Shown piece after piece: positions 3,697 through 64,000 of a stretch of DNA of 64,000 nucleotides. The translations under genes were made by a program, and so were the position numbers. The DNA comes from Candidatus Saccharimonadota bacterium. GTDB taxonomy: Bacteria > Patescibacteriota > Saccharimonadia > Saccharimonadales > JACDBH01. The DNA is taken from contig JACDBH010000001.1 of the NCBI GenBank assembly GCA_013694995.1, forward strand, positions 66,145 through 130,144. The letters run 5' to 3'. How positions within the stretch are numbered: position 1 is the first letter of the stretch; the number at the start of each line of letters is the position of its first letter. The notes below the pieces were generated by a model. The model saw nothing but the letters and a program-made list of their open reading frames with translations, was not told the DNA's origin and did no database searches.

Positions 3697-4116
3697 ATGG
3701 ATGAGATGCAGGAACAATATGAAAAACCAAAGCGCAAGGCGTTGGACAGCCGGATCGTACGCTCATTTGTTGTCGGCGTAGCTTTGACGCTTCTATCTTT
3801 AGTAATGATCGGCTTTAATTTGAGTACGGCCGGAGGCATCAAGATCAATGACGATGTCAATCGTTATTTTGACACTTGTGTGGGTGAAGGCTTTGTCGAC
3901 AATACGCCACGGATCCGGACTGACGAACGTGGCTTCCCCTTAGCTTATGTCCAAACAAGTCACGTACCTGTTTGTGAAAACACGGGCGTTGAACTAAAGC
4001 GCAGTTCAACAAGATCCGTCGACCTGGGGGCTCTCGGCGCAAATGTACTTTTTTGGACTTGTTCAGCGTTTATTATTCTGCGCCGCTACGGGAAGCGAAA
4101 ACCATCTGAAGCATGA
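3697..4116 (+). CDS. hypothetical membrane protein
   Basis: 139-aa ORF with hydrophobic segments (FVVGVALTLLSLVMIGF; VLFWTCSAFIILRRY). Confidence 0.5.
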   Translation: MDEMQEQYEKPKRKALDSRIVRSFVVGVALTLLSLVMIGFNLSTAGGIKINDDVNRYFDTCVGEGFVDNTPRIRTDERGFPLAYVQTSHVPVCENTGVELKRSSTRSVDLGALGANVLFWTCSAFIILRRYGKRKPSEA

Positions 4117-8179: not shown

Positions 8180-8245
8180 GTAGCCCAATCTTTCATTTTC
8201 ATCTGTTAATGTTAACACATAAGAAAATGATGTTTTTAAAACCGT

Positions 8246-10943: not shown

Positions 10944-11547
10944 GCTGAAAGGCAACGGGACGGATACTCCAAAGACGCTTACCATCCAGGTATGAATTTT
11001 GCGTGGCATCCGTCCCCTAAGCCCATAAGCTCACCGAGAAACAAGACCGTGAAGGTTTTCCTTCGCACTAAGCTCATCCTTTTATAGGATTAAAGCTGTC
11101 TGACGTGTTTCTCCCCTTCGGCTAAAAACATTTAGCCCTGAGGGAGATAAGCAGTTTTCATTACTGTGCAAAAAAAGGGTAGTAATACCGTAAGATATTA
11201 TATTGCTTTTTTAGTATTTAATAGTATAAGATGTTTATCACTCAAGGGAGTACGTTGAGTTTATAATTTGGTTGTTTGCTTTTTGCCACAATTGCAGAAG
11301 ATATTCTGCACTCATGGTAAAAAGTGAGCATGGATTGCCAAAAAAATGATGGGAAAACCTATCGGTAAATGGCAAAAATTACAGTAGCTCCTTTTTACGC
11401 ACTTTGACATGTTAGGTAGGTATTAAATTTGGAATACGGAATTTGCACTAAAATTAGTTAAGTACAAGTTCCGTATTCCAATTAGGGAGTATCGGGCGCA
11501 AGCGGGCGCGGCAATCCAGCCAATCGCAACGACAAGGGAGGAATCCT

Positions 11548-17515: not shown

Positions 17516-18556
17516 ATGAGCATACTGAGTGGGGTATCTAATTTCTTCGGCCTTGATATAGGTACTACTGCCGTGCGCGTAGTCCAATTAAGAGGCACCG
17601 GACCAGCTAAAGCTTTGGTTAAGTACGGCTACCTGCCGATAGATAGCAAATTGTCCATGAGTGATTCCAAGACTGATCTGCAAAAGATTGCCCAATCAGT
17701 CAAAGAACTGGTTACCCAAGCAGGGATTACCTCTAAGGAAGTGGCGGTAGGGCTGCCCTCAAGCAAGGTATTTACAACAGTTGCAGAATTTGACAAATTA
17801 TCACCGTCTGAAATGCAAAAAACTCTACAGTACCAAGCTGAATCACTTATCCCTACGCCGCTTAGCGAGAGCAAGATTGACTGGGCACTAATCGGCGAAT
17901 CCCCAAAAGATCCTGCAAAAGTAGAGGTACTTCTAAGTAGTGTAACTAACGAATTTGTTGAAAGCCGACTGGAAATGCTCGAATCCATTGGACTTAATGT
18001 CATAGCATTCGAACCTGACGCTATAGCACTTGTTCGAGCAATGACGGCGGCCGATAATCCATTGCCGGTATTGGTTATCGATATGGGCAGTAAAACTACC
18101 GATATGGTTGTAACAATGGGTGGCGTGCCGCGCCTGACGCGGTCTTTGCCTACAGGCACAGATGCCGTACTGCGTTCTGCTATTCAAAATCTTAATATTG
18201 ACGAGAAACAAGCCCAGCAGTTCGTATTTAAATTCGGCCTTGGCAAGGAGAAGTTAGAGGGGCAAATCTACAACGCAATTATTGGGACTATCGATCTACT
18301 AGTAAACGACATCGAGAAGTCGATTAAATTCTTCCTATCAAAATACCCAACAGTAAAATTTGATCGGATTATTATGACCGGCGGAGCATCAGTGCTACCT
18401 GAGTTTCCGCTGTACATCGCCAACAAATTTGGTATCAATGTTGAAATAGGCAATGCCTGGCGTAACGTTGCATTTCCGGCCGATAGGCAAAATGAACTTT
18501 TGGCTGTATCTAATCATTTTGGTGTTGCAGCAGGGCTGGCGGAGCGAAACGAATGA
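17516..18556 (+). CDS. pilM: type IV pilus assembly protein PilM (actin-like ATPase fold)
   Basis: 346 aa. FGLDIGTTAVRVVQL...VIDMGSKTTDMVV...IIMTGGASVLPEF. Followed by pilN with a 4-nt overlap. Confidence 0.85.
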   Translation: MSILSGVSNFFGLDIGTTAVRVVQLRGTGPAKALVKYGYLPIDSKLSMSDSKTDLQKIAQSVKELVTQAGITSKEVAVGLPSSKVFTTVAEFDKLSPSEMQKTLQYQAESLIPTPLSESKIDWALIGESPKDPAKVEVLLSSVTNEFVESRLEMLESIGLNVIAFEPDAIALVRAMTAADNPLPVLVIDMGSKTTDMVVTMGGVPRLTRSLPTGTDAVLRSAIQNLNIDEKQAQQFVFKFGLGKEKLEGQIYNAIIGTIDLLVNDIEKSIKFFLSKYPTVKFDRIIMTGGASVLPEFPLYIANKFGINVEIGNAWRNVAFPADRQNELLAVSNHFGVAAGLAERNE

Positions 18557-19233
18557 TCCAATTTAACCTCCTTCCTGATATAAAAGTAGAGTTCATGCGC
18601 ACAAAGCGGCTGAAGCGCGTTATTATACTAGGCTCAGTCATTGCATCCATAGTTTCAATATTAATAATGATGGGAATGTTTTCTTTAAATGCAGCTCAAA
18701 ATCTCCACCTCAGTAATCTGGATGAGGATATCAAAAAAATTAAGTCAGAATTTGATGCCAACCCGGACCTCAATAAAATATTGACTGTGCAGAACCAACT
18801 TAATAGTTTGCCCTCGCTTTATGCCAGTCGTCCAGCGGCGACCCGGCTGACAAAATACATCGAACAGACAACCCCAGCCGATATTGGACTAACCAAGATA
18901 GTAGTTAATTTCACAGATTATACAATGGAGGTGTCTGGAAAATCATCGTCACTACAAACAGTTAATACTTATGCAGATACCTTGAAGTTTACGTCTTATA
19001 CCACGGGTAGCGACCAGACGACAGCTTTAGCCTTTAAAGATGTTGTTTTAAGTGAATTCAGCCGGGATGAGATAGCGGAATTTACGATAACTTTAGCTTA
19101 TGATCCGCTTATATTTGATGAGGCGGAAGAAGTAAACCTTGTAATTCCAAGTGCAGTTACTACTCGTTCAGAGCTTGCAAGACCCGGCTTTGACCTATTT
19201 GTAGGTACTCCAACAGAAACAGAGGAGCAATAA
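18553..19233 (+). CDS. pilN: type IV pilus assembly protein PilN-like
   Basis: MIQFNLLPD...KRLKRVIILGSVIASIVSILIMM (the INLLP-type N-terminus plus a TM segment). Position after pilM. Confidence 0.7.
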   Translation: MIQFNLLPDIKVEFMRTKRLKRVIILGSVIASIVSILIMMGMFSLNAAQNLHLSNLDEDIKKIKSEFDANPDLNKILTVQNQLNSLPSLYASRPAATRLTKYIEQTTPADIGLTKIVVNFTDYTMEVSGKSSSLQTVNTYADTLKFTSYTTGSDQTTALAFKDVVLSEFSRDEIAEFTITLAYDPLIFDEAEEVNLVIPSAVTTRSELARPGFDLFVGTPTETEEQ

Positions 19234-19234
19234 T

Positions 19235-19894
19235 ATGGCTACTGCAAAAAAGCAGACCAAACGGGCAAGTGTAGATAAGGATAAAACTACAATATTTGTG
19301 ATTGTGGCTATAGCAGCCTTGCTAGTAACTGGATCGTTGGTTGTAAGTAAGAATCTTTTAAGCCAAGGTAACTATCTCAGCAAGGTAGCTGGTAAAAAAG
19401 AAGTAGCACTAAAACAACTTGAGAATAACAAGCAAGCGGCCTCTACTTTAGAGCAGTCTTATAAAGACTTTGCCAATCAGGATCCTAATCTTATTGGCGG
19501 GACAGTCGCAGGCAAGGGTGAGCGTGATGGTGATAATGCTAAACTTATCCTTGACGCGCTACCTAGCAAGTATGATTTTCCGGCATTGACCGCAAGCATT
19601 GAGAAGATGCTAACTGGCTATTCCATCGAAGAAATAGAAGGCGTGGATGACGCATTATCACAACAATCAGCTGTACCGGCAGGTTCAGTTGAAATGCCTT
19701 TCTCTATGGATATAATTACTAATTATGAAGGTCTTCGGACGCTGCTAGAGAAGCTTGACCGTTCTATTCGTCCTTTTCAGATTACAAAAATTGACTTAAG
19801 TGGCACTAATGCTGCGTTACAATCAAAAATTGAGGCAAAAACCTATTACCAACCTGAAAAAGGCCTGCAAATAACCAATGAAAGCGTAATATGA
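19235..19894 (+). CDS. pilO: type IV pilus assembly protein PilO-like
   Basis: 219 aa. N-terminal TM, then a coiled-coil segment. The call rests mainly on its position between pilN and pilB. Confidence 0.5.
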   Translation: MATAKKQTKRASVDKDKTTIFVIVAIAALLVTGSLVVSKNLLSQGNYLSKVAGKKEVALKQLENNKQAASTLEQSYKDFANQDPNLIGGTVAGKGERDGDNAKLILDALPSKYDFPALTASIEKMLTGYSIEEIEGVDDALSQQSAVPAGSVEMPFSMDIITNYEGLRTLLEKLDRSIRPFQITKIDLSGTNAALQSKIEAKTYYQPEKGLQITNESVI

Positions 19895-20139
19895 AACAAC
19901 AGGATGTAGCAGTTATTATAGCAATTGTGTTTTTTGCAGGAGTGTTTTCAGTAGTGCTTTCAAATAAATTCATATCCCCTCCTAGCAGTAAGCGCACGGC
20001 GGAAGTTGTACAGCCAATTACAGCCGATTTTGTGTTACCGAGTACAGATGTCTTTAACGCTACGGCAGAGAACCCAACTCGGCTAATTGAAATTGCACCA
20101 AATGCAAACAACCAGCCGTTTGCAGATGCAAACAATTAA
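19891..20139 (+). CDS. small membrane protein in the pilus operon
   Basis: 82 aa with one TM (VAVIIAIVFFAGVFSVVL). 4-nt overlap with pilO-like. Confidence 0.5.
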   Translation: MKQQDVAVIIAIVFFAGVFSVVLSNKFISPPSSKRTAEVVQPITADFVLPSTDVFNATAENPTRLIEIAPNANNQPFADANN

Positions 20140-20148
20140 GGAGGCCGA

Positions 20149-21933
20149 ATGAGTGTTTTATCGGCGTCTACTCAAAAGCAAGTAGAGGAACAGCTCGTCA
20201 AAGATGGCTTGCTTGATGATAGCCAACTCAGTTCACTTAAGGCTAAAGCCGAAAAATCCAGTACGCCACTTTTTTCACTTTTGGTTTCGGACGGTATTGT
20301 CGACAACGAAAATCTTACCAAGGCGACTGCTGTAGTCACAAAAGTCCCATATGTAAATTTGACAACAGCAAGGATTGACCCCGAAACACTAGAACTACTG
20401 CCTCACGAGGTAGCCGAGCAATATATGGCTGTCCCTTTGGGCGAAATGCAACACCGTTTAGTAGTAGCGATGCTCGATGCCGATAATGTGCAGGCTGTAG
20501 ATTTTTTAAGCAATAAAATCGGCCGTCCATTGAAGGTATATGCTGCGAGCGAACAGGGTATTCGCAGTGCATTGATGCAGTATAAAGCCAAACTTGATGA
20601 AAACGTAGCCGGAGCGCTTGCAAAAGACGCGGCCTTACCATCTGGAGGTGAAAATCAAGCTACTGACAAAGACAAGAATATTAAAACAATTGTCCAGGAT
20701 TCACCTATTAGCAAAGCGCTCAGCACTATACTTGAGTACTCCGCCAAAAACCGGGCAAGCGATATCCATATTGAACCGCTTGAGAAGGAACTCAAGATCC
20801 GAGTGCGAATAGATGGGGTACTAAGAGAAATCATGAAGTTGCCTAAAAGCACTGAAGCACCGCTTGTGAGCCGCATTAAGATCTTAAGCAACCTCAAGAT
20901 TGACGAACACCGTATCCCACAGGATGGCCAGTTTACTATCAAGGCCGATAATAAAGAAATTGACCTTCGTATTGCCATTTCTCCGGTGGTTTGGGGAGAG
21001 CAGGTCGTTATCCGGCTTTTGGATAAGTCTGGAACCAGTCTGAAATTGGAAGATATGGGTTATACTGGCCGGGCGTTACGTACTATCCGTAAAGGCATCA
21101 GTAACCCTAACGGCATGATTTTGACTTCCGGACCGACCGGTTCGGGTAAGAGCACGAGTCTTTACGCGCTCATCCAGGAAATTAAAAACGACACCATTAA
21201 CATTGTCACACTAGAAGATCCGGTTGAATATAAGATGAGCGGAATTAACCAGATCCAAATTAATGCCGATGTCGGCCTGACTTTCGCAACTGGTTTACGT
21301 TCGGTCTTGCGCCAGGATCCCGATGTTGTGATGGTAGGGGAGATCCGGGATGCAGAAACGGCAGCGTTGGCTGTGCAGGCAGCACTCACGGGCCACCTAG
21401 TCTTTAGTACGCTTCATACCAACTCTGCTGCCGGTATATTACCGCGTTTACTGGATATGGGCGTAGAACCATTTTTGATAGCCAGTACGGTTCGTACAGT
21501 TATTGGTCAACGACTGGTACGCCGTCTAGCAACTCCCGAAGCCTACCAGTCCGATAAAGCAGAAGCTGGTTTAATAAATGAGCATTTAGGCATGCTTTTA
21601 CCAGAAAAGGACTCTGGTGTTGCGGACGTAGCCGAAGATTTAGGCTATGAAACCTTGCCTCTAAGGGGCCAAAGCGCTTATACTTTATTTAAAGGCAAAG
21701 ACACACCGGATGCGCCGGGCGGATATCGCGGACGGGTCGGTTTGTACGAAGTCTTTGAGGTTACGGAATCAATCCAAGACCTCATCATGAAGCGGGCATC
21801 GAGCGCCGAGATCCAGAAGGCAGCTCAGGCAGAAGGTATGATTACTATGCAACAAGATGGATTCTTCAAAGCACTGGCAGGCAAAACTACCATTGCCGAA
21901 ATAACGAGGGTGGCAGCAGATGACGCAGCATAA
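20149..21933 (+). CDS. pilB: type IV pilus extension ATPase PilB (GspE family)
   Basis: 594 aa. N-terminal GspII_E-like region, Walker A LTSGPTGSGKSTSLYA, Asp box, Walker B VVMVGEIRD, His box TGHLVFSTLHTN. Confidence 0.92.
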   Translation: MSVLSASTQKQVEEQLVKDGLLDDSQLSSLKAKAEKSSTPLFSLLVSDGIVDNENLTKATAVVTKVPYVNLTTARIDPETLELLPHEVAEQYMAVPLGEMQHRLVVAMLDADNVQAVDFLSNKIGRPLKVYAASEQGIRSALMQYKAKLDENVAGALAKDAALPSGGENQATDKDKNIKTIVQDSPISKALSTILEYSAKNRASDIHIEPLEKELKIRVRIDGVLREIMKLPKSTEAPLVSRIKILSNLKIDEHRIPQDGQFTIKADNKEIDLRIAISPVVWGEQVVIRLLDKSGTSLKLEDMGYTGRALRTIRKGISNPNGMILTSGPTGSGKSTSLYALIQEIKNDTINIVTLEDPVEYKMSGINQIQINADVGLTFATGLRSVLRQDPDVVMVGEIRDAETAALAVQAALTGHLVFSTLHTNSAAGILPRLLDMGVEPFLIASTVRTVIGQRLVRRLATPEAYQSDKAEAGLINEHLGMLLPEKDSGVADVAEDLGYETLPLRGQSAYTLFKGKDTPDAPGGYRGRVGLYEVFEVTESIQDLIMKRASSAEIQKAAQAEGMITMQQDGFFKALAGKTTIAEITRVAADDAA

Positions 21934-22058
21934 AGGAGCAGCAATGAAATACAGAGTACAGCGTACAGAGCATAAAATAGGCAAATGTAGTGAATATAAA
22001 CTACTCAGTACTCAGTACTTTCTACTAAGCACTATAAATTCTGAAGGGATTTATTAAT

Positions 22059-23132
22059 ATGGCTGCATCAGCCCAACCTCGTATAGAAATCTTGCTGGAA
22101 GAAGTTATCAAAAAGAAAGCATCCGACTTGCACTTACAAGTAGGCCTTCCACCGATGTTAAGGGTAGACGGCTCATTATTGGCTGTCACAGGTGCCGAGC
22201 CGTTGACCGAAGAATCAATTGAGGTACTGATTTTTGCAGTTTTAGATGATGACCAGAAGCAAATACTTCTTAAAGACAAAGAGTTTGACTTTAGCTTTGC
22301 CTTTGGTGATTTGGGACGTTTCCGGGTTAACGCTTTCCACGAACGGGGTAACCTAGCCGCTGCACTTCGCCTTATCCCGAATGAAGTCATGACAGTTGAG
22401 CAACTTGGACTGCCGCCGGTCATCAGTAAATTTACCGAATATCCCCGCGGCCTTGTGCTGGTAACTGGCCCAACCGGCTCAGGTAAGTCAACGACACTTG
22501 CCGCAATGATTCACAAAATCAATGCCGATCGGGCCTGCCATATCGTAACGATTGAGGATCCGATTGAATTTACACATAAAAGTAACCGCTCAGTGATTGT
22601 ACAGCGTGAAGTTCACTATGATACGTTCTCTTTTAGTGCAGCGCTTAGAAGTGCGCTACGCCAAGACCCGGATGTCGTATTGATTGGTGAGATGCGCGAC
22701 CTTGAAACTATAGCTGCGGCGATTACGATTGCTGAAACCGGCCACTTGGTATTTGCGACACTACACACCAATAGTGCCGCCCAAAGCATCGACCGCATGA
22801 TCGACGTCTTTCCACCGCACCAGCAGCCTCAGATAAGGGCACAGCTAAGCAATATACTGATGGCTATCTGTTCCCAACGTCTTATTCCAGCTATTGGTGG
22901 AGGCCGCATGGCTGCTGCTGAAGTCCTAATTGCTACACCGGCTGTGCGTAACATTATCCGCGAAGGTAAGAGTCACCAGCTTGACGCCGTAATACAGACA
23001 GGGGCAGAGTTTGGGATGCAGAGCATGGATAAGACACTTGTCGGGCTAATACACGCTGGTACTATTACTTATGATGAAGCTAGAAATTTTGCTGTCGATA
23101 TATCCGAATTAGACAGGCTTATGAGAGGCTAA
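22059..23132 (+). CDS. pilT: twitching-motility retraction ATPase PilT
   Basis: 357 aa. ASDLHLQVGLPPMLRVDG, VTGPTGSGKSTTLAAMI, VVLIGEMRD, TGHLVFATLHTNSAAQSIDR, AxxNIIREGK. Confidence 0.92.
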   Translation: MAASAQPRIEILLEEVIKKKASDLHLQVGLPPMLRVDGSLLAVTGAEPLTEESIEVLIFAVLDDDQKQILLKDKEFDFSFAFGDLGRFRVNAFHERGNLAAALRLIPNEVMTVEQLGLPPVISKFTEYPRGLVLVTGPTGSGKSTTLAAMIHKINADRACHIVTIEDPIEFTHKSNRSVIVQREVHYDTFSFSAALRSALRQDPDVVLIGEMRDLETIAAAITIAETGHLVFATLHTNSAAQSIDRMIDVFPPHQQPQIRAQLSNILMAICSQRLIPAIGGGRMAAAEVLIATPAVRNIIREGKSHQLDAVIQTGAEFGMQSMDKTLVGLIHAGTITYDEARNFAVDISELDRLMRG

Positions 23133-23235
23133 TGATGAGTTTAAAGTCAAAAGTTCATAAAGTTTATAAAGAAGAAAGCAGTACACTTTCTACTTTTGAC
23201 TTGTTACTTTTGACTAGAAAGGCCGAAGGTCTTTC

Positions 23236-24462
23236 ATGTTGACCTTTAGCTACACAGCCCGGGACAGCAAGACCGGAGCAAAAATAAGTGCGGAAGTCCA
23301 AGCTGACAGTGAAAACGCTGCTGCTAAACTTATCCGTCAGGAAGGCCTTTCACCACTCGAAATACATATAAAAGATGGAACAAGCAATAACCCCATTTCT
23401 AAATTTAAAAATAGGGTCAAATCCAAAGACCGCATATTGTTTGCACGCCAACTATCTACGCTGATTAATGCCGGTCTGCCGTTGGTTCAGAGCATGCGTA
23501 GTGTATTTGACCAGACCCAAAGTAAGCCATTAAAGATTATAGTTGGCAAAATTATTAATGACATTGAAGCTGGTGGTACATTTTCTAGTTCTTTAGCCCG
23601 CCACCCCAAAGTGTTTAACCAAATTTTTGTTAGCCTGATTGCAGCTGGTGAAGTATCTGGTACACTCGATACCGCACTAGAGCGCGTGGCTTTCCAGCAA
23701 GAAAAAGATGCTGAAATTATGAGCAAAGTACGCGGAGCTATGGCATATCCGGCCATTGTTTTGCTCGTCATGACAGCTGTTATCGGCTTTATGGTTGTGA
23801 GTGTTTTGCCCCAAGTAGAGAGTATTTATAAGGAAATGCCTGGTGCCCAGCTGCCGATTTCTACCAAGCTTTTACTTCTATTATCACATTTCGTAATTGA
23901 CTATTGGTGGGCAGTTCTAATCTTCCTAGGTGTAATGATCTTCATAACTACCAAATGGGCGCGTACAGGCCCAGGCAAGCTAATAATAGACCGGGCTAAG
24001 ATGAAAATGTGGCCGATTGGGCAGTTGTTTATGAAGCTTTATATGGCGCGCTTTGCCCGCACCGGCACGACACTGGTTGCAAGTGGCGTACCGCTGCTGC
24101 AGATGTTAGAGATTACAGCAAAGTCAATCAGTAATGTTCACATTGAGGCCGCACTCATTCAAGCTATGGATAAAGTCCGGGGCGGTAAAGCGCTGTCTAC
24201 CGCTATAGAAGGCGACCCAAATTTCCTTGATTTAGTACCTAAGATGCTGCAGATAGGTGAGCAATCCGGGCAGATTGAGCAAATGCTAGCTAAAATTGCT
24301 GAATACTTTGAGAAAGAGGTAGATAATCAGATTAAGACAATATCAACAATTATCGAGCCAGTTATGATGGTGCTTTTAGGCATAGTTGCCTTTATCCTTG
24401 TAGGAGCTATTCTGCTACCTATCTATGGCTTAGCAGGCCAATCCGGGCTTGGAGGGGGATAA
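23236..24462 (+). CDS. pilC: type IV pilus platform protein PilC (GspF family)
   Basis: 408 aa. Duplicated GspF repeats (FARQLSTLINAGLPLVQS; FARTGTTLVASGVPLLQM) and three TM blocks. Confidence 0.9.
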   Translation: MLTFSYTARDSKTGAKISAEVQADSENAAAKLIRQEGLSPLEIHIKDGTSNNPISKFKNRVKSKDRILFARQLSTLINAGLPLVQSMRSVFDQTQSKPLKIIVGKIINDIEAGGTFSSSLARHPKVFNQIFVSLIAAGEVSGTLDTALERVAFQQEKDAEIMSKVRGAMAYPAIVLLVMTAVIGFMVVSVLPQVESIYKEMPGAQLPISTKLLLLLSHFVIDYWWAVLIFLGVMIFITTKWARTGPGKLIIDRAKMKMWPIGQLFMKLYMARFARTGTTLVASGVPLLQMLEITAKSISNVHIEAALIQAMDKVRGGKALSTAIEGDPNFLDLVPKMLQIGEQSGQIEQMLAKIAEYFEKEVDNQIKTISTIIEPVMMVLLGIVAFILVGAILLPIYGLAGQSGLGGG

Positions 24463-37014: not shown

Positions 37015-37080
37015 GTCAACATATTGTCATAACGCTATATATATTACCAGTGGAAAACAATTAAAATATTGGGGATAAAC

Positions 37081-37108
37081 AAAAACCGCGAACAAATTCG
37101 CGGTTTTT
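37081..37108. terminator. bidirectional rho-independent terminator
   Basis: AAAAACCGCGAA-caaa-TTCGCGGTTTTT: a perfect stem flanked by an A-run and a T-run. Confidence 0.7.
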
Positions 37109-37141
37109 AATTTTCCACCTCTGTTACAAATTCACGTTTGT

Positions 37142-37246
37142 TTAAGCTCGTTGCCTACGCAGACGTTGCTTAACGGGTTTACCTTTGAGTAGCTCTTCGT
37201 AGAACAACTTAAAGCCGTCAAGCGAGATTGGTTGAGATTCACTCAC
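37142..37246 (-). CDS. possible small ORF (34 aa), unrecognised
   Basis: GTG start with GGGAG 6 nt upstream. MSESQPISLDGFKLFYEELLKGKPVKQRLRRQRA. It ends 34 nt before the 37081 terminator. Below the track's length cutoff. Confidence 0.25.
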   Translation of the reverse strand: MSESQPISLDGFKLFYEELLKGKPVKQRLRRQRA

Positions 37247-37391
37247 CAAAAACTCCCGATTAACACGCTTATGTTAACATAAAAGACAAATAAAGTCAAT
37301 GATTATGCTATAATTACATCATAATGAGCGAAAAACAAATGTGTTTAATTTTCTGAAAAATGTGTAATTGCACGAAGTATAATTAACACCT

Positions 37392-46870: not shown

Positions 46871-47077
46871 CAAAATGACCGCCTATTTCAGGCGGCCATT
46901 ATGATGTAGGCCAGATGATCTATAAGCCGGGTTCTGTTTAGAACTAGCCCAGGCCTGCACATTTAGCAAATAGCAGGTCCAAGCTTCATGCTGTACCTAT
47001 CGTGCGTCAACATATCTTTAGATATGCCTCTTTACGATAAGTTCAACCTAAAACTCGTCAGCAACTATTTTGCTTTT

Positions 47078-47514
47078 TAATGTTCAGACCAGGGCCAGCT
47101 CCTGCTAATCATCTATCTAGGCTTAGGATTGCTCCTAAGCTCAAGCGGTTTTTGTTGACGAGCCCCGGCGGGAAACCTTGATGGGACTTATCTCCTTGCA
47201 GCGGACAGGGTTTACCTCTTCTACACGTCACCGTGCAGAACTGTGGGCTCTTACCCCACTCGTTTCATCCTTACCGTCAGCGCTCCGCCCTGACAAGTCG
47301 AAAGTTTGCAAAGTATAAAGTTTGAAAGTCATATGAATTTCAAACTTTAGGAACTTTTAACTTTTTAACTTGCCGGTGCGAAGCACGGCGGCGGTATCGT
47401 TTCTGTGGCACTTTCCCTGAGGTTACCCTCGGTTGCCGTTAACAACTGTCTTTCCCTACGCTGCCCGGACTTTCCTCTCGCGTATAAACGCGGGCGATTA
47501 GCCGAACATCTGAC
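47078..47514 (-). ncRNA. rnpB: RNase P RNA (bacterial type), approximate ends
   Basis: The minus strand contains GAGAGGAAAGTCCGGGC (plus-strand coordinates 47463-47479). P2 pairing is GCTAATC/GATTAGC. P1 pairing is ATGTTC/GAACAT (47504-47509 with 47080-47085). The 3' CCTAGATAGATGATTAGC...GGCCCTGGTCTGAAC resembles the P4 3' strand. A TATAAT box lies just upstream (plus 47521-47526). No ORF anywhere in this region. Confidence 0.8.
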
Positions 47515-47549: not shown

Positions 47550-47924
47550 TTATTTTTCAGCGGCTTTGACTTGGCTTACATCAGCGGAGGCTGAGTTGAC
47601 TACTGCAGTGAAAGCTGCTGGTTCGTTGACGGCCAGTTCGGCCAATACTTTTCGGTTGAGGTCGATATGAGTCCCTTTGAGGGCGGCGATAAGCTTGCTG
47701 TAAGTTGTGCCGTTTATGCGTGCAGCGGCATTAATACGAGCATTCCATAGAGAACGAAAAGTGCGCTTCTTGTTACGGCGGTCACGATAGGCGTGCTGCA
47801 GGCCTTTTACGACAGCCTGGCGGCCACGTTTGACACTTGAACGGTTGGGACGCGTCATCCCTTTAGTGGCGTGACGGATTTTCTGGTGGCGCTGGTGGGA
47901 TGTAACGCCTCTCTTAACGCGCAT
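47550..47924 (-). CDS. rplT: 50S ribosomal protein L20
   Basis: [22 protein letters not shown]...[24 protein letters not shown]. Confidence 0.92.
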
Positions 47925-47926
47925 AG

Positions 47927-48121
47927 TTAGGCTCCTAGTTTCAGTTTAATATTCTTAGCTGATTTGCCGGTCATTTCTTGCAAGCCAGCAAAAGTCCGTT
48001 TGCGTGAAGCACTTTTCTTTTGTAGAAGGTGGTTACCAGATGCATGGCGCATCAGCACCTTGTCGTTCTTGGTAATCCGTACTCTTTTTTTGGTACCTTT
48101 ATGAGTTTTTAGTTTGGGCAT
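47927..48121 (-). CDS. rpmI: 50S ribosomal protein L35
   Basis: [37 protein letters not shown]. Confidence 0.9.
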
Positions 48122-48629
48122 GGCTGTTACTCCTTATGACGAATATTAGCTGTTTACCGTTTAGTTGTGGTAGTTGATCAACATTTACCTTTTCCCCGAA
48201 GCTTTCAATCACTCTGTCAGCTAGTTTGAAACCGAGGTCGCGGTGTGCATTTTCCCGTCCCCGGTAGACTACTGCAATCTTTACTTTATGACCTTCGTCC
48301 AAAAACTCGGTAATCTTGCGAAGTTTGACGCCGAGGTCATGATCACTAATCTTCAGCCCAAAACGCATCTGCTTGACTTCAAAAGTCTTGGTGTTACGTT
48401 TGTTCTTCTGAAGCTGCTTAGTTTTCTGGTAATTGTACTTGCCCCAGTTAACAATTTTGGCGACCGGAGGGTTTGCTTCCGGTGAAATCTCAACCAGGTC
48501 AAGATCGGCAGATTCAGCGGCACGTAATGCTTCGACTCTAGACATAACTCCAAGCTGGCGGCCTTCCTCATCGATGACTCTCAGCTCAGGTGCCCGAATA
48601 GCTTCATTCAGGCGTGTGGTTTTGTTGAT
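48099..48629 (-). CDS. infC: translation initiation factor IF-3, non-AUG (AUC) start
   Basis: The track ORF begins at an internal Met (48545). The frame stays open upstream to a TAG at 48633-48635 and encodes INKTTRLNEAIRAPELRVIDEEGRQLGV, the conserved IF3 N-terminus. The only plausible start is ATC 48629-48627, with GGAGAAG 6 nt upstream of it. Confidence 0.8.
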   Translation of the reverse strand: MNKTTRLNEAIRAPELRVIDEEGRQLGVMSRVEALRAAESADLDLVEISPEANPPVAKIVNWGKYNYQKTKQLQKNKRNTKTFEVKQMRFGLKISDHDLGVKLRKITEFLDEGHKVKIAVVYRGRENAHRDLGFKLADRVIESFGEKVNVDQLPQLNGKQLIFVIRSNSHAQTKNS

Positions 48630-50237: not shown

Positions 50238-51766
50238 AATGAATTTGATTGTAAGCATAAAGCAGCAATAGGCAAGCATGAGCATCTATTTTTTAATAAA
50301 AACGGAAAAAGAAAAAACCCACTGATATTTTGCAGCGGGCTTTTTGATGTGGGTAGTGTTGTTTTGTCTTTTTAAAGTGTTTGTCTATTTTTTAGTGGTG
50401 ATAACAGCTTGCGAGAAACTGTTATCACCGATGTTCTTTTTGTTTTTGAGCACTTTTTTTATTCAGTGCTGAATACATCTTATAAAGCCTTAATAATAGT
50501 GTCAATAAGATTGTGCTTTTAATATCTGTGTATAACTTTTCCGTAGGTAAAATAAAGGTAGATTATAACCGAGTTTATATGTAATTTTTACTCCCCCAGT
50601 CGTACCAAAACTACCAACTAGCACTATTGTACCGGACCACTTGTTCTAAGGAGCTGGTTGGTAAGCTTATTCATGTAGGGTGGATATATTTAAGATTAAA
50701 GCCGAATCATAACGTAGAAAAGGTATGCCTAATTAAACAATTAAGTTCAATTAGGCTACGGCCATACTTTGTTAGGTAGAATCCACCCACGCTGGTACTT
50801 ATTGACCATAAAAATTAAAACATATAGTCATACCTAAGTGGGTTATAACGAAGCATATTAAGTTAGTTTCTGTAAATCAAAAATGTATGACCATACGACC
50901 CATCCATTAGAGTTTGAGTAGCTTGCATATAAAGTTTTAGGTAATAAGCATAAATCGGCTATGAATTATTAATAAAACCTAAAAATATATAAAACTGCTA
51001 CGGACGCGTTATGTAGGTAATATAAAGACAATCAAAAATAAAGTCTGTATTGTACATGGACGCTTTTAAAAATCGTTTGGAAGTGGGTTGTTAGCAAAAA
51101 GGAGGGGGCTGGTATAAGTAAATTGCAGTAGCTAATTAAAGCACTTGGGTCATTATTGTAGTATTATCTACATATTCTTAATATATATCATGTTAATAAT
51201 TACTACAGGCTGATTATGCTCTTGTATGACTTGTGTACACAATATGTTTATAAGTAATAAGAGACAGCAAAATAAAGAAATAAACATCTTAATAAATTTC
51301 TAAAGTCTAATGGTTAATCTATCAAGGCAGAAAACAGGAACGTTAGTGGTTCAAAACGCACAATTATCTCACAACAGGGCCTTAGATAACCTAATAATTC
51401 AGATACACCAAGCTTACATAATGGATGTAGTACAAAATACACAAATCAAAGAGTTAAATAATACAACAAAAAATATAGCACATATAACAGGGAATACGTT
51501 GATTTAAAGACATCAATAGTATTGACAATAGTAGTTTACTGAAGTATGATGCAGGAGTGATGCAACAAATAAAAACCTTCCCAAACTCTTCATAACAAAA
51601 TAAGAACATCGCTTGCTACCCGCTAAACGGGTAACGAGCGGTCAGTCAAAGCCTTTGGACGGTAAGCGCTATAAAATAATAATTTATCGAGCGGATTTAC
51701 CGTCCGGGCTCCAAAAAAACATGTCTTTTTATAAAAAACCTCTATCAAATAAAAACGAACAAAAAT

Positions 51767-52147
51767 ATGAACTCTAAACATACATTTAAAAAGCAGGTTA
51801 CGATGTGCCTAAGTAGCTTCTTGGTCTTAGGTATTTTTGTATTATCGACAAACCCAAGAGATTTGTCGGCTGCCTTATTATTAGTACTACCTTTACTAGT
51901 TTATTTAACTGTATATTCTGCTTCTAGATTAACCGCAAACTACTTTTTTAGCACTTCTAAGATTAGGGTACATTCAGTAAGTGCGATAATTGCGGCCGGG
52001 CCAACGCTGATGGTTATCTTGGGATCTTTAGGCCAGTTAGGTGTGCAGGATATTTTATTAGCATGCATGTTATGTGCTGGACTCGGTTGGTATTTACGCC
52101 GCTTACCTCGAGCTACGCAAAGAGACCTAGCGCTTGCTAGACAATAA
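51767..52147 (+). CDS. hypothetical 4-TM membrane protein
   Basis: 126 aa with four hydrophobic helices. First ORF after the 1.5-kb AT-rich gap. Confidence 0.5.
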   Translation: MNSKHTFKKQVTMCLSSFLVLGIFVLSTNPRDLSAALLLVLPLLVYLTVYSASRLTANYFFSTSKIRVHSVSAIIAAGPTLMVILGSLGQLGVQDILLACMLCAGLGWYLRRLPRATQRDLALARQ

Positions 52148-52223
52148 ATTATAGCTAGCAACTTCCTGTCGACGGTTTCTATCTGTAACTGACACTATCT
52201 GTTTGGTATACTAATATATAAGC

Positions 52224-52607
52224 ATGAACCCGAATAAGCCACAGCCTAGTTTTGAATTGCCGACGCCTGTACAGTCCGGTGAGAACAAGCCTGATGTTTC
52301 GGCTGAAGTTGCACCGGCCCATAGTGAACAGCACCCGTCTATTCCAGCGGCTGTTCCTTCAAGCCTGCCTCAAACCCCACCTCTCACCGCACCAACTCCT
52401 ACTCCGCCATCACTGGATCCCCAAGGGCAGAGCCCGCTAATCGCCGATGATGCGGATCTTATCGAAAAGGAGTGGGTAGAAAAAGCAAAACGAATTGTAG
52501 CGGGTACAAAGCAAGATCCTTACGCTCAGAACCGGGAGATAAACCGCTTTAAGGCAGATTATATGAAAAAGAGATATAACAAGGACGTTAAGATTGATGA
52601 ATCATAG
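52224..52607 (+). CDS. hypothetical protein, Pro-rich N-terminus and basic helical C-terminus
   Basis: 127 aa. PTPVQSGENKPD...TPPLTAPTPTPPSL, then IEKEWVEKAKRIVAGTKQDPYAQNREINRFKADYMKKRY. Confidence 0.5.
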   Translation: MNPNKPQPSFELPTPVQSGENKPDVSAEVAPAHSEQHPSIPAAVPSSLPQTPPLTAPTPTPPSLDPQGQSPLIADDADLIEKEWVEKAKRIVAGTKQDPYAQNREINRFKADYMKKRYNKDVKIDES

Positions 52608-52625
52608 GTGGCGGGTACTTAATAT

Positions 52626-55613
52626 ATGAGTGGCTTTCTTTTAACACTGGTAATCCTATTAGGCATCCTGATTGGAGCCGGCCTAGTGATTTTTTATCAT
52701 TCCCGTAAACTTCTAAGGGAACAGAAGAACTATGAGCGCAGCCTTAAAATGGTGCCACTGCTGATACATTTGCCACCGACTAGTGATGATATCGAAAAAG
52801 GCTCACGTGATGTGCGCGACGTGACCGACGAGACCATTAGCAAGGCCCAAATTGTTTACAACATTATCGCCAGCACATATAAGAAGAGTTTTAAAGACAA
52901 GTTCTATGGGCAGCGACATTTCAGCTTTGAAATAGTGGGGGTAAAAGGGTTTGTGTACCTTTATGCCGCAGTACCAATATCAATGCTGGACGTCGTCAGG
53001 CAGGCAATTGTCAGTGCTTATCCATCGGTACGATTGGAGGAAGTTTCTGAACATAATATCTTTAGCCCCGTTGGCAAGATGAGTGGGACTATGGGCGGTG
53101 AGCTAACGCTGAAAGAAAATTATGCCTATCCTATTGCTACCTACCAGGATCTGAAACGCGATGCCCTACAGAGTGTATTAAACGCGCTGTCGACCCTTGA
53201 TAAAGAAGATGGCGCTGGAATACAAATAATGATGCGGCCAGCTGACAGTAGCTGGCGCAAGAATGCTGCCGCCGTGGCATCCAAGAAACGAAAAGGTAAT
53301 GACTCTAAGAAGAGCGGGGCGGCCATTCTGCAGTTTTCTCGCGATGTATTGACCGCAGCGGTAAAGCCGCCGGAAGAAAAGGGTGGAAAGCCCGAGGAAA
53401 AGAAAGAGCTATCTGGCATGGAACAGGCTGTATTAGATGCGATTGATGATAAAACACGCTATCCGGGCTTTGAGGTACTCATCCGCGTGGTCGCCAGTTC
53501 CAATATTTCACAACGGTCGCAGAGTATTCTTAACAACATAGTTGCCAGTTTCGCGCTTTTTGATGCACCTGGTAAGAATGGCTTCAAATTTACTCCAGCT
53601 AAGGATATAGAAAGCTTTACGACGGCTTATATAATGCGGTTCTTTCCGCAAGAGAATAAGCAAAATATCTTGAATGCTGTTGAACTTGCAACACTTTTCC
53701 ATTTCCCAGACCAAGCCAGTATACCGACTACTCAGCTGGAACGCCAAGCAAGCAAACAAGTTGATGGCCCACGCAACATCTCTGAAGATGGAATGATGCT
53801 TGGCTATAATATTTTTAGAGGATCTAAAAAAAGAATCAATCTGGATCCAGAAGACCGCCGCCGCCATATTTATGCGGTCGGGCAGACCGGTACAGGTAAA
53901 TCGACTTTTCTGGAAAACCTTGCTCTTCAGGATATGCTGAATGGTAATGGCTTTGCTTTTATTGATCCGCACGGTGACGTCGTGGAGAATCTTATGGCAA
54001 TGGTGCCGAGAGAACGCACTGAAGACGTAATTTATTTCAATCCATCTGATATGGAGTACCCTCTAGGCCTTAATATGTTTGAGTTTGATCATCCTGACCA
54101 GATAGACTTCTTGATCCAGGAGACTATCGGCATGCTCTATAAACTCTACGATCCCCAGCGACAAGGTATTATTGGTCCGCGTTACGAGCATTTGTTTAGA
54201 AGTGCCGCTCAAACCGTAATGGCCGACCCGGCCGGTGGTAGTTTTATCGATATACCAAAACTCTTCAACGATGACGCTTATGTAAAAAGCAAGCTCAAGC
54301 ATGTAACTGATCCTACGGTGCTTGACTTCTGGCTTAAGGAAATGCCTGCCAGCCAGCGGAGTAATGAGTTCGGCGAAGTCAAGAGCTGGTTCGTGAGCAA
54401 GTTCGGTGCCTTTCTTAGCAACCAGATGATGCGCAATATCATAGGCCAGACCAAGAGCTCGTTCAACTTGCGGGACATAATGGATAATAAGAAAATTCTA
54501 TTAGTAAACCTGAGCAAAGGGCGAACAGGCGAATTAAACTCCAAGCTGTTAGGTATGATCTTCGTCATGAAGTTTCAGGCTGCGGCTATGTCTCGGGCCT
54601 CCATACCCGAAGATGAACGGGTAGACTTTAGCCTCTATGTTGACGAGTTCCAGAACTTTTCAACCGATTCATTCGCCACCATCTTAAGTGAAGCCCGTAA
54701 GTACCGCCTCAGCCTTATAGTTGCAAACCAGTTCACGACTCAGCTTACTGAGGAGATTAGGGATGCGGTAATCGGTAACATTGGTACCATTGTCTCTTTC
54801 CGCGTAGGTACTAATGATGCTGAGTTTCTGGCGAAATACTTCGCACCCGTGTTTGATATACATGACCTGCAGAGAATCCCAAACTTCAATTCAGTTACAC
54901 GAATGCTGATTGGTGGCGTACCGAGCCAGCCGTTTAGTATGGCCACCTTGCCGCCTCTAGGTAAACCCAACCCACAGCTGGCGGTCGCGCTTAAGCAACT
55001 ATCGGCCGCCAAATTTGGCCGTCCCCGTGCTAGAGTTGAATCGGAAATATTTACCCGCCTGAGGACTGTCGAGCCCGCCAGGCCACCAGCAGATACTAAT
55101 CCTTTCGCTAAGGCGCCAGGTTCACCATTTAGCCCTCCAGCGGCTTCTAAAACATCAGGAGGCTCTTTCTTGGACGAATGGCTTGCCAAGCGCCAGTCGG
55201 CTGGGGGCCCGGTAACACCTACGCCTTTTGCTTCGCCCAGCTCTAATTTTGCCGGCCCAGCCCGAAATTCATTGCCTTCCTCTGTGCAACCAAACCCTAT
55301 TCCAAATCCCTTAACTCCCTTACAACCCAGCGTCAACACAGGTAGCACCATCGGGTACATGGACGCAAAATCTAATAACATCTCAAGTAATGAAGTTGAA
55401 CAGGAAGAAGCTCTTAAAATAGCAGAAAAGCTGAAACAAGAGCTGGGCCAGCACGCGCCAGCCACTGCAAACTCAGGGGTATCACTGCCGGCTGCAGAAC
55501 CCAAAGAGCCTGAAAATAGCGACACGATCTCTATTGATCAAGACGGTAATTTCACTAAACCTTCTGAAAGCCTGGAAGTATTACCGGAACCTACGGATAA
55601 TCCAGCTACTTAA
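52626..55613 (+). CDS. VirD4/TraD-like (HerA/FtsK-superfamily) membrane-anchored P-loop ATPase, type IV coupling-protein-like
   Basis: 995 aa. N-terminal TM (FLLTLVILLGILIGAGLVIFY), Walker A YAVGQTGTGKSTFLENL followed by FIDPHGD, Walker B FSLYVDEFQNF, LIVANQF. Long Pro/Ser-rich disordered C-terminus. Confidence 0.7.
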   Translation: MSGFLLTLVILLGILIGAGLVIFYHSRKLLREQKNYERSLKMVPLLIHLPPTSDDIEKGSRDVRDVTDETISKAQIVYNIIASTYKKSFKDKFYGQRHFSFEIVGVKGFVYLYAAVPISMLDVVRQAIVSAYPSVRLEEVSEHNIFSPVGKMSGTMGGELTLKENYAYPIATYQDLKRDALQSVLNALSTLDKEDGAGIQIMMRPADSSWRKNAAAVASKKRKGNDSKKSGAAILQFSRDVLTAAVKPPEEKGGKPEEKKELSGMEQAVLDAIDDKTRYPGFEVLIRVVASSNISQRSQSILNNIVASFALFDAPGKNGFKFTPAKDIESFTTAYIMRFFPQENKQNILNAVELATLFHFPDQASIPTTQLERQASKQVDGPRNISEDGMMLGYNIFRGSKKRINLDPEDRRRHIYAVGQTGTGKSTFLENLALQDMLNGNGFAFIDPHGDVVENLMAMVPRERTEDVIYFNPSDMEYPLGLNMFEFDHPDQIDFLIQETIGMLYKLYDPQRQGIIGPRYEHLFRSAAQTVMADPAGGSFIDIPKLFNDDAYVKSKLKHVTDPTVLDFWLKEMPASQRSNEFGEVKSWFVSKFGAFLSNQMMRNIIGQTKSSFNLRDIMDNKKILLVNLSKGRTGELNSKLLGMIFVMKFQAAAMSRASIPEDERVDFSLYVDEFQNFSTDSFATILSEARKYRLSLIVANQFTTQLTEEIRDAVIGNIGTIVSFRVGTNDAEFLAKYFAPVFDIHDLQRIPNFNSVTRMLIGGVPSQPFSMATLPPLGKPNPQLAVALKQLSAAKFGRPRARVESEIFTRLRTVEPARPPADTNPFAKAPGSPFSPPAASKTSGGSFLDEWLAKRQSAGGPVTPTPFASPSSNFAGPARNSLPSSVQPNPIPNPLTPLQPSVNTGSTIGYMDAKSNNISSNEVEQEEALKIAEKLKQELGQHAPATANSGVSLPAAEPKEPENSDTISIDQDGNFTKPSESLEVLPEPTDNPAT

Positions 55614-63525: not shown

Positions 63526-64000
<475 letters not shown>

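Follow-up and report, generated by a model that had tools for sequence, protein, structure and literature searches.

An AT-rich block without open reading frames in a Saccharibacteria chromosome probably holds two outward-transcribed structured RNAs separated by a fast-evolving spacer

The window analysed here, a stretch of 64,000 nucleotides (nt) of contig JACDBH010000001.1, is chromosomal DNA of a Candidatus Saccharibacteria (TM7, in the CPR (Candidate Phyla Radiation) or Patescibacteria) metagenome-assembled genome. Between comM on the minus strand and a divergent operon that begins with two small orphan genes on the plus strand, it harbors an AT-rich block of about 1.5 kb that is devoid of open reading frames (ORFs) of real length. 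This block is probably not one element; it would rather consist of two structured RNAs transcribed outward, RNA A toward comM and RNA B toward the operon, with a fast-evolving spacer inserted between them, and its functional content most likely resides at its two ends. This reading is favored because the two best promoter matches of the block face outward exactly at the two islands that are conserved among relatives.

The conserved islands were delimited by comparison with 22 syntenic loci (ComM identity 52-76%), which were collected in two ways, through homologs of ComM (from 76% down to 52%) and, independently, through homologs of the second small protein encoded to the right of the block. 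By either anchor, the divergent arrangement of comM, gap and small genes is kept in the 22 loci. About 12 of the 80 loci from a peptide-pattern scan of metagenomes belonged to Saccharibacteria, and genome contigs searched with ComM peptides yielded nothing but an unrelated locus of Clostridium. The fourfold-degenerate sites of comM show an identity of 0.29-0.38 between the window and its relatives; these sites are saturated and, therefore, anything that still aligns in the gap is under constraint. A four-way alignment of the gap together with nhmmer recovered exactly two conserved islands, one at each end (identity to the window of 59-94% for the core of RNA A and 60-82% for the core of RNA B), and nothing between them. 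The original prediction (made earlier from the letters of the window) had proposed alignment with close relatives as a check; alignment with the syntenic relatives gives two conserved end islands and a variable middle.

Covariance models were built from the locus alignments, R1 for RNA B and R2 for RNA A, and exactly one copy of each RNA was found per Saccharibacteria locus. R1 scores 71-120 bits in 18 loci and at most 27 bits on the antisense strand or elsewhere; for R2 the scores are 66-106 bits in 22 distinct Saccharibacteria loci, with no more than 25.5 bits elsewhere. For both models, antisense matches stay at or below 27 bits. The matches include loci that were outside the building set (L090, L092, L180, L181 and L182, plus L013 for RNA A). 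Neither model gave anything meaningful in 68 comM loci of other bacteria, and the IMG/VR viral contigs contained no RNA B and no true RNA A (24 bits or less).

Both islands covary as paired RNA. In RNA A, 95.9% of the alignment cells are paired and double changes occur at 9 of 19 pairs, with 34 double-change cells compared to 9.1 ± 2.5 in shuffled alignments (a value reached by 0 of 500 shuffles), and pairing falls to 32-49% in controls where the partners were slid. In RNA B, 96.8% of the cells are paired and double changes occur at 12 of 27 pairs, with 47 double-change cells compared to 15.8 ± 2.9 (again 0 of 500 shuffles) and 28-45% pairing in the slid controls. The fold z score is -7.2 for the RNA A transcript including its terminator hairpin and -4.75 for the RNA B transcript. 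G·U and A·C appositions stand at 30:0 in RNA B, which places its structure on the plus-strand RNA and not on the antisense strand or the DNA; in RNA A the ratio is 16:7.

The ORF-free stretch extends from 50286 to 51766 (1,481 nt without an ORF of at least 80 amino acids (aa)); it is the longest such stretch in the window and also the most AT-rich among them. Its GC content is about 0.33 (0.325-0.326) against 0.451 for the whole window, and the profile runs at 0.29-0.37 between approximately 50200 and 51850 and at 0.43-0.55 in the flanks. The longest ORF inside has 65 aa. Each of the six frames contains 30-56 stops and all of TAA, TAG and TGA occur in every frame, so no single codon reassignment restores an ORF and such a rescue is ruled out. 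The AT-rich, ORF-less 1.5-kb block and the stops of all kinds in every frame (from a hand scan of part of the minus strand) that the original prediction had described are therefore confirmed. Of the five ordered elements it had listed, all lie where it had placed them; three are far beyond chance and conserved, whereas the other two are at chance level and unconserved. Among its four candidate explanations, an unusually large regulatory region comes closest in view of the two promoters, the DnaA-box-like element and the two RNAs described below. On the whole, its interpretation is supported in part. The start of comM at 50237, the left limit of the intergenic region, agrees with the N-terminus of the ComM family. 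The other long ORF-free gaps of the window mostly hold tRNAs, RNase P RNA or rRNA; two further AT-rich stretches without an ORF of at least 80 aa and without RNA annotation are found at 10973-11453 (GC 0.378) and 37015-37318 (GC 0.359).

The right island comprises the following features.

51522-51550, plus strand: RNA B promoter, predicted, TTGACA and TATGAT separated by a 17-nt spacer (11/12, the best in the block)
51557-51766, plus strand: predicted RNA B transcript with 5' leader, from alignments, covariation and model R1
51603-51718, plus strand: structured core of RNA B, about 115 nt, with a covarying four-helix structure

The promoter elements are kept in register in the alignment of relatives (TTGAC at -35 and TAnnnT at -10). 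The 5' part of RNA B carries a C/A-rich motif (ACAAATAAAAAC in the window and CAAAAACAAAAAC in most relatives), followed by a variable linker and by the core. In the core, helix P1 (CGCUU/GAGCG, with CGCUY among relatives) encloses the P2 hairpin with its UAAA loop, after which come the invariant GGUCAGUCA, P3 and a long P4; a GA bulge is conserved in the P3/P4 hairpin, and the AU-rich tip of this hairpin varies. Invariance is found at GGUCAGUCA, in the loop UAAA and in the bulge region GGAUUU. The self-complementary segment that had been noticed at 51600-51710 corresponds to this conserved multi-helix core, whose pairing covaries.

In all loci that extend far enough, RNA B is located on the sense strand and upstream of homologs of the same two small genes. 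Since one core with different 3' arrangements always precedes one gene family, RNA B is probably a cis-regulatory leader that senses a ligand or a protein; its 5' untranslated region (UTR) position before a consistent gene family and its covarying, aptamer-like fold are those of a leader. According to this model, a second outward promoter would drive RNA B, whose core would lie in the 5' UTR of an operon for two small proteins specific to Saccharibacteria (often including a DUF8128 ATPase that resembles DNA translocases), and one sensor domain would be joined to different expression platforms, either a terminator or a direct run into the start codon. The main rival, a possible but rather doubtful one, is that RNA B is a stand-alone small RNA (sRNA) acting in trans that merely adjoins the operon. 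It draws on the strong intrinsic terminator that 6 of 17 loci show directly after the core (within 7-13 nt), on the distance from core to start codon in terminator-bearing loci, which reaches up to 215 nt (141-215 nt in L013 and L180), on the -10-like boxes before some start codons and on a 5' motif that RNA B has in common with the sRNA-like RNA A. However, the other 11 loci, including the window, have no terminator, and in 10 of these 11, those with a callable start, the start codon is only 43-74 nt past the end of the core. In the window this distance is 48 nt (to the ATG at 51767) and no promoter is detectable within it. Without a terminator and without an intervening promoter, RNA B would be co-transcribed with the operon in such loci, and the gene pair next to it is always the same, in the same orientation and position.

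The left island is read from the opposite strand.

50477-50505, minus strand: RNA A promoter, predicted, TTGACA and TAAGAT separated by a 17-nt spacer (10/12, second best in the block)
50304-50470, minus strand: predicted RNA A transcript, about 167 nt, from alignments, covariation and model R2
50470-50449, minus strand: hairpin P1 of RNA A, 5 bp with an A-rich loop
50448-50438, minus strand: invariant single-stranded CAAAAACAAAA of RNA A, from the alignments of relatives
50429-50397, minus strand: hairpin P2 of RNA A, 13 bp with the invariant apex UUCUCGCAAG
50312-50345, minus strand: predicted intrinsic terminator of RNA A, a GC-rich hairpin with a 13-pair stem followed by UUUUUUCUUUUU
50248-50275, minus strand: putative comM promoter, TTGCCT and TACAAT separated by a 16-nt spacer (9/12)

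TTGAC at -35 and TAAGAT, TACTAT or TAATAT at -10 are found in register in all relatives with enough upstream sequence, and the transcription start site (TSS) of RNA A was placed from the position of the -10 element. The unpaired CAAAAACAAAAA stretch is invariant across relatives. The perfect inverted repeat reported earlier at 50397-50429 turns out to be P2, a conserved hairpin in which many compensatory changes are observed. A C/A-rich, nearly G-free linker of 50-60 nt leads to the terminator, and the hairpin at 50318-50339 had been correctly taken as the minus-strand terminator of something leaving the block: a hairpin with a T-run lies 33-73 nt past the core in 19 of the 22 loci, with a different sequence each time. 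The 167-nt sequence has no AUG.

RNA A is probably a stand-alone small RNA and not a leader of comM, given its own terminator, the separate comM promoter and the variable distance between RNA A and comM (approximately 50 to 660 nt among loci). At the level of sequence it has what is expected of an sRNA gene, that is, its own promoter, its own terminator and a structure maintained by compensatory changes. A sigma-70-type promoter would thus direct RNA A leftward up to its own terminator before comM, and the RNA may act by base-pairing with targets or by protein binding through its invariant loop and (AAN)n-like stretch. Sites complementary to the invariant motifs, taken as possible trans targets, occur within the window at chance level. 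The putative -10 element of comM ends 10 nt before the ATG at 50237, which indicates that the 5' UTR of comM would be very short or absent, and the CTTGCY...TACAAT pattern is kept in the alignment of window-clade relatives.

The infC-rpmI-rplT genes of Firmicutes are controlled by L20-binding attenuating leaders, and the same genes follow comM in the window. A cis-acting attenuator (a riboswitch, or a leader bound by a ribosomal or other protein) of comM and the co-oriented infC-rpmI-rplT has accordingly to be weighed, and the succession of promoter, conserved structure, terminator and gene is the classic layout of such a device; RNA A lies upstream of comM in 22 of 22 loci. We nevertheless consider this reading of RNA A unlikely. 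A conserved promoter-like element (TTGCY...TACAAT) separates the terminator from comM, the distance from RNA A to comM is not fixed, the nearly G-free linker cannot form an antiterminator with the variable terminator arms, and RNA A has no match to the Rfam L20_leader. More generally, the Rfam 15 scan that had been suggested matched no family at gathering level in the block. In permissive mode the block gave only chance matches (E of at least 1.4, 15-24 bits against gathering thresholds of 44-100); nothing overlapped the islands in seven relatives, and nothing appeared there in the whole window at E ≤0.1. Known RNA families (6S, SRP, tmRNA, L20 leader and ribozymes) are therefore set aside for the window and for the relatives. 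At 8089-8231 (minus strand) of L015, a distant relative, 6S RNA was matched below threshold next to a tRNA (33 bits, with a gathering threshold of 46); the window had no counterpart match.

Upstream of RNA A lies a short conserved element.

50525-50538, minus strand: conserved box AGTTATACACAGAT, which holds the exact DnaA-box consensus TTATNCACA at 50527-50535

Seventeen of the 22 loci have an exact copy of the box, always located 21-31 nt upstream of the -35 element of RNA A (21 nt in the window, with its center near -61 from the predicted TSS). It is the only exact DnaA box in nearly every 9-17-kb relative locus, and in compact loci it stands between two back-to-back divergent promoters. 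In model bacteria, DnaA acts as a transcription factor at single promoter boxes of dnaA, nrdAB and other genes. The box is a candidate transcription-factor site, -61 being a typical activator position, and a DnaA-box-like operator at about -61 would precede the RNA A promoter as a control site. The motif conserved across the phylum, AGTTAT[A/G]CACAG (AGTTATRCACAG), is longer than a DnaA box and could belong to another regulator.

The presence of an exact, phylum-conserved DnaA-box consensus beside AT-rich DNA, between divergent genes and with gyrB and gyrA 6.5 kb downstream, also recalls an origin of replication (oriC) in which the AT-rich part would be the unwinding region. This is very improbable. 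GC skew is positive on both sides of the block, and the cumulative skew (proposed earlier for the whole genome as a test for an origin or terminus) increases across the window, from 0.1 to 3.2, and shows no inflection at 50-52 kb; genes between 0 and 46 kb point the same way as those that follow the block. There is one exact box per locus and no cluster, and relaxed boxes (at most one mismatch) are as frequent as expected across the window (62 observed against 65 expected). Furthermore, the AT-rich part has nearly disappeared in some relatives (the cores of RNA A and RNA B are 165-230 nt apart in L010, L015 and L016), and no dnaA or dnaN was found among the neighbors scanned. For want of a skew switch, a box cluster and a neighboring dnaA or dnaN, oriC was rejected.

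The motif CAAAAAYAAAAAC is common to the 5' parts of RNA A and RNA B (50438-50448 on the minus strand in A, 51563-51576 on the plus strand in B). On the DNA, it forms an inverted repeat of 11-14 nt that brackets both divergent promoters in many loci, as in L015, where the copies lie at 3598-3608 (minus strand) and 3836-3846 (plus strand). In the 64-kb window the exact 11-mer is present a single time, which indicates that the motif is no general feature of the genome. Possible roles are a protein-binding site common to the two RNAs, (AAN)n-like, or a pair of DNA operators. Another reading, in which the hairpins themselves are DNA signals (an origin of transfer (oriT) or a single-strand site for the VirD4-like ATPase) or the promoter segment is invertible through the CAAAAACAAAA repeats, was also considered and appears hardly credible. 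The block does adjoin a gene for a coupling-protein-like ATPase, the 11-14-nt inverted repeats do flank both promoters in many loci, and the window contains an 18-nt inverted pair, 83% complementary (50429-50446 and 51594-51611). On the other hand, the 30 G·U against 0 A·C in RNA B and the strand-asymmetric scores of the covariance models are those of RNA pairing, there is no relaxase or recombinase nearby, the locus is chromosomal and syntenic across the phylum, the segment has the same orientation in 22 of 22 loci, and L010, L013 and L015 have RNA B with no ATPase downstream. The oriT was rejected on the RNA-type pairing, on the neighbors (comM, infC, rpmI, rplT and the orphan operon, with no relaxase) and on the lack of plasmid or phage similarity, and the invertible promoter switch on the constant orientation and the absence of a recombinase among the neighbors. 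The origin or transfer-origin-like region of the original prediction is thus not supported, in view of the skew, the single exact DnaA box, the RNA-type pairing and the neighboring genes.

Between the box and the promoter of RNA B lies the middle of the block.

50545-51515, no strand: variable AT-rich spacer, 971 nt, GC 0.319, non-coding, with no detectable homolog

No similarity of the spacer to the gaps of relatives or to the rest of the window was detected by blastn, nhmmer or tblastx, and blastn against plasmids and phages gave nothing. Six-frame translations with masked stops had no Pfam match at E ≤1, the 65-aa ORF that it contains had no homolog among 5.8 billion proteins, no peptides or small proteins were found to be shared among the spacers of relatives, and neither terminal repeats nor extra copies were present. 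Aligned to the spacers of relatives, it scores as shuffled sequence. Traces of homology, faint and collinear, are left only between the spacers of L088 and L089 (z about 6); they suggest that the spacer is passed on vertically and decays, up to saturating divergence, and is not inserted time and again. The distance between the cores of RNA A and RNA B, already given for the three most compact loci, amounts to 350-630 nt in four further loci and, in the window clade, L090 and L182, to 880-1,344 nt, and the extra DNA is always located between the box and the promoter of RNA B. The spacer is therefore best described as expandable and lineage-specific, and quite likely without a specific sequence function, none having been detected; the middle 970 nt or so would be unconstrained DNA that inflates a divergent control region.

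The spacer also contains a hairpin of GCCTAATT and the second copy of a 15-mer. The two elements of the original prediction that did not hold are these: the near-identical 15-mer at 50543 and 51013 is at chance level (a repeat with at most one mismatch arises in 17% of dinucleotide shuffles), as is the GCCTAATT/AATTAGGC inverted repeat at 50727-50756 (an 8-bp repeat is expected 1.16 times per shuffle), and both lie in or at the edge of the spacer and are not conserved. The latter hairpin (GCCUAAUU...AAUUAGGC on the minus strand, with a U-rich tail) was scored as terminator-like and is nested in a longer local hairpin, where GGGTGGAT (at about 50679) pairs with ATCCACCC (at about 50781); being unconserved, it could be a lineage-specific transcript end or chance. 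Phasing of AA/TT with the helix is inconsistent (3 of 8 spacers at p < 0.1), and A-tract curvature was rejected as a spacer signal.

One large non-coding RNA, another of the explanations first put forward, had the wrong scale: two small RNAs (one of about 167 nt, the other with a core of about 115 nt) are separated by about 1 kb of unconserved DNA. It was rejected because the central 971 nt are unconserved, the fold z scores of the middle are weak and the two ends are on opposite strands. The search for pseudogene remnants (six-frame Pfam and tblastx against the gaps of relatives) found none and, together with the lack of phage or plasmid matches and of any match to the 65-aa ORF, leaves a pseudogene or decayed coding insertion unsupported. 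The decayed foreign insertion of the original prediction is accordingly not borne out by Pfam, phage, plasmid or shared-peptide evidence, while an ancient origin of the spacer alone is compatible with the data. Such a remnant of a mobile element or gene between the promoters would be AT-richer than the host genome, would sit at a fixed point between the box and the promoter of RNA B and would be present in some lineages and nearly absent in others, as is observed. We regard it as improbable all the same, since no frame shows a pseudogene trace in Pfam at E ≤1 and no phage or plasmid similarity, terminal repeats, extra copies or shared peptides are found; at such divergence any trace would be gone, which makes the proposal hard to test.

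Somewhat less improbable, yet still unlikely, is a spacer that is not inert, either because it encodes fast-evolving, lineage-specific small proteins or small RNAs or because an AT-rich length is needed between the promoters; looping between the inverted CAAAAACAAAA sites, nucleoid-protein binding or a topological buffer would be examples of the second kind, to which we give the same low credence. A spacer of 0.7-1.3 kb is found in at least 11 loci that span saturated divergence, its GC content is consistently 5-13 points below the locus mean and lower than at the fourfold sites (0.319 against 0.438 in the window), a scan gave minus-strand promoter-like sites and the terminator-like hairpin at 50756-50727 inside it, and the spacer has RNA fold z scores of -2.4 and -1.9. 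However, these scores come from 20 shuffles only, the internal hairpin and repeat are at chance, the spacers have no peptides or sequences in common and their phasing is inconsistent. The cores of L010, L015 and L016 are so close to each other that no spacer length is required phylum-wide.

Several observations weigh against two outward RNAs with an inert spacer between them. In many lineages of a streamlined genome, a spacer of about 0.7-1.3 kb has outlasted divergence to saturation, which is a hint of constraint, and its GC content (0.32, against 0.44 at fourfold sites) hints at something beyond junk. As regards RNA B, a convincing antiterminator or anti-sequestor pairing is lacking: one 7-nt antiterminator complement was seen by eye in L010 and not in L013, L015, L016 or L009, and no sequestering helix was identified in the terminator-less loci, which makes a riboswitch-type switch a candidate only. 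In the 6 loci where it ends in a terminator, these terminators and the possible -10-like boxes before some start codons fit a stand-alone sRNA equally well. The strand evidence from G·U pairs in RNA A is moderate (16:7), and its strand is assigned mainly from the orientation of promoter and terminator. The occurrence of CAAAAAYAAAAAC in both RNAs is unexplained. Finally, all promoters, TSSs and terminators of the block are predictions from sequence, and the expression of the two RNAs and their action in trans or in cis are deduced from the same patterns.

The genes to the left of the block, all on the minus strand, are comM, infC, rpmI, rplT and the gene for RNase P RNA; to the right, on the plus strand, the two small orphan genes and the gene of a 995-aa DUF8128 ATPase are followed by gyrB, gyrA and the start of the 16S rRNA. 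The operon that RNA B precedes is the following.

51767-55613, plus strand: downstream operon encoding a 126-aa multi-pass membrane protein, a 127-aa Pro-rich protein and the 995-aa DUF8128 ATPase

Homologs of the first small gene encode multi-pass membrane proteins of about 115-130 aa. The Pro-rich protein (52224-52607, plus strand) has a conserved C-terminal domain (ADDxDLIEKEWVxKAKxIV..DPYxQNRE..FKADYxKKRYNKDIK) and no Pfam, NCBIfam or PADLOC match; its orphan family counts 915 members, all of them from Saccharibacteria/Patescibacteria. The ATPase is a member of the HerA/FtsK/VirD4 superfamily and resembles HerA, FtsK, TraD and VirD4 distantly, far below curated cut-offs; it follows the small genes in the window clade, L090, L180 and L182 and not in L010, L013 or L015, and nothing relevant on DUF8128 was found in the literature. 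A AAAAAGCGAACA-like motif, with no Shine-Dalgarno sequence, directly precedes the start of the first small gene (51750-51766, plus strand) and is conserved in the window clade (equivalents in L003, L005, L086, L088 and L089). Together with the TACAAT located 10 nt before the ATG of comM, this start-adjacent motif suggests leaderless or very short-leader mRNAs.

Other observations concern the neighboring genes. The L20 protein (encoded at 47550-47924) recurs, within the same gene order, on contig JAITZI010000027.1 (GCA_020063845.1), and the ComM protein carries the annotation 'Candidatus Saccharibacteria bacterium'. The infC ORF (48099-48545, minus strand, with ATG, GTG and TTG allowed as starts) lacks the first 22 or so positions of the IF3 N-terminal domain, which is consistent with an unusual start codon of the AUU/AUA type that is typical of infC. 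The class A RNase P RNA (46907-47513, minus strand, 202 bits) spans 607 nt in the window, compared to 333-366 nt in L016, L017, L009 and L015 and 519-551 nt in L090 and L010, and this spread indicates that some Saccharibacteria lineages have large insertions in the ribozyme gene. The beginning of the 16S rRNA (63526-64000, plus strand) uses 475 nt to cover only positions 1-427 of the model, which implies that about 48 nt are inserted in the 5' (V1) region, at around 63590-63680. Farther away, a type IV pilus cluster (17516-24462, plus strand) encodes PilM, a PilB-like ATPase, a PilT-like ATPase and PilC.

According to a preprint on the TM7x transcriptome, Saccharibacteria are without validated small RNAs (doi 10.1101/2022.03.25.485537). 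No description of RNA A, RNA B or the box motifs was found in the literature on Saccharibacteria non-coding RNAs. None of the three belongs to a curated family; elements of these kinds are known, and the phylum is essentially uncharted for them. CPR bacteria, a large and little understood branch, have tiny and densely coded genomes, and the two RNAs would rank with their first candidate riboregulators. Next to the two RNAs are genes plausibly tied to DNA uptake and translocation (comM and the HerA/VirD4-superfamily ATPase). These genes are of importance to life as an epibiont and to natural transformation, through which the organisms are manipulated genetically. RNA B provides a handle on an orphan operon, since its sensor may reveal the signal to which the operon responds, and the conserved single DnaA box offers a testable link to the replication initiator. 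As a long shot, RNA B could represent a new riboswitch or protein-sensing leader class specific to Saccharibacteria, in control of a phylum-specific operon for membrane and DNA-translocase-like proteins, and RNA A the first conserved trans-acting regulatory RNA of the CPR, the two being co-regulated through the DnaA box and the common CAAAAACAAAAAC motif as a two-RNA module that ties replication status to DNA-uptake or cell-surface functions (comM and the DUF8128 ATPase) in these epibionts. A more general caution is that a long AT-rich ORF-free block can be two small elements and filler, and not one large element.

Compared with known systems, the block shares with the large RNAs OLE, GOLLD, ROOL and HEARO a long ORF-free stretch with structured RNA in a compact genome; unlike them, its conservation is limited to two short ends on opposite strands, its central kilobase is unconserved and it has no Rfam match. 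Like a bacterial oriC, it has AT-rich DNA beside a DnaA box between divergent genes, whereas a cluster of boxes, a skew inversion and a dnaA or dnaN among the neighbors scanned are missing and the AT-rich part is dispensable. The box is more similar to the single DnaA boxes of promoters, as one exact TTATNCACA at a fixed short distance upstream and conserved across the phylum, although its motif (AGTTATRCACAG) is longer and the consensus may not be the one preferred in Saccharibacteria. CrcZ and CrcY are A-rich sRNAs with CA motifs that act as protein sponges, and RoxS is an sRNA of Firmicutes with a C-rich seed. RNA A differs from such terminator-ended sRNAs in having no sequence or structure match in Rfam and no enriched complementary targets in the window, and resembles them in its own sigma-70-type promoter, its few hairpins, its intrinsic terminator, its non-coding nature, its invariant unpaired C/A-rich, (AAN)n-like stretches and its phylum-wide conservation. 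RNA B, which has no Rfam match and precedes genes without an assigned function, so that no ligand can be guessed, is otherwise similar to orphan riboswitch candidates and protein-binding leaders, structured motifs of 5' UTRs that comparative genomics has brought to light and of which only some precede a terminator: a multi-helix covarying core with invariant unpaired nucleotides lies in sense orientation before the same gene family, and a terminator comes after it in some lineages, whereas in others it leads directly to the start codon.

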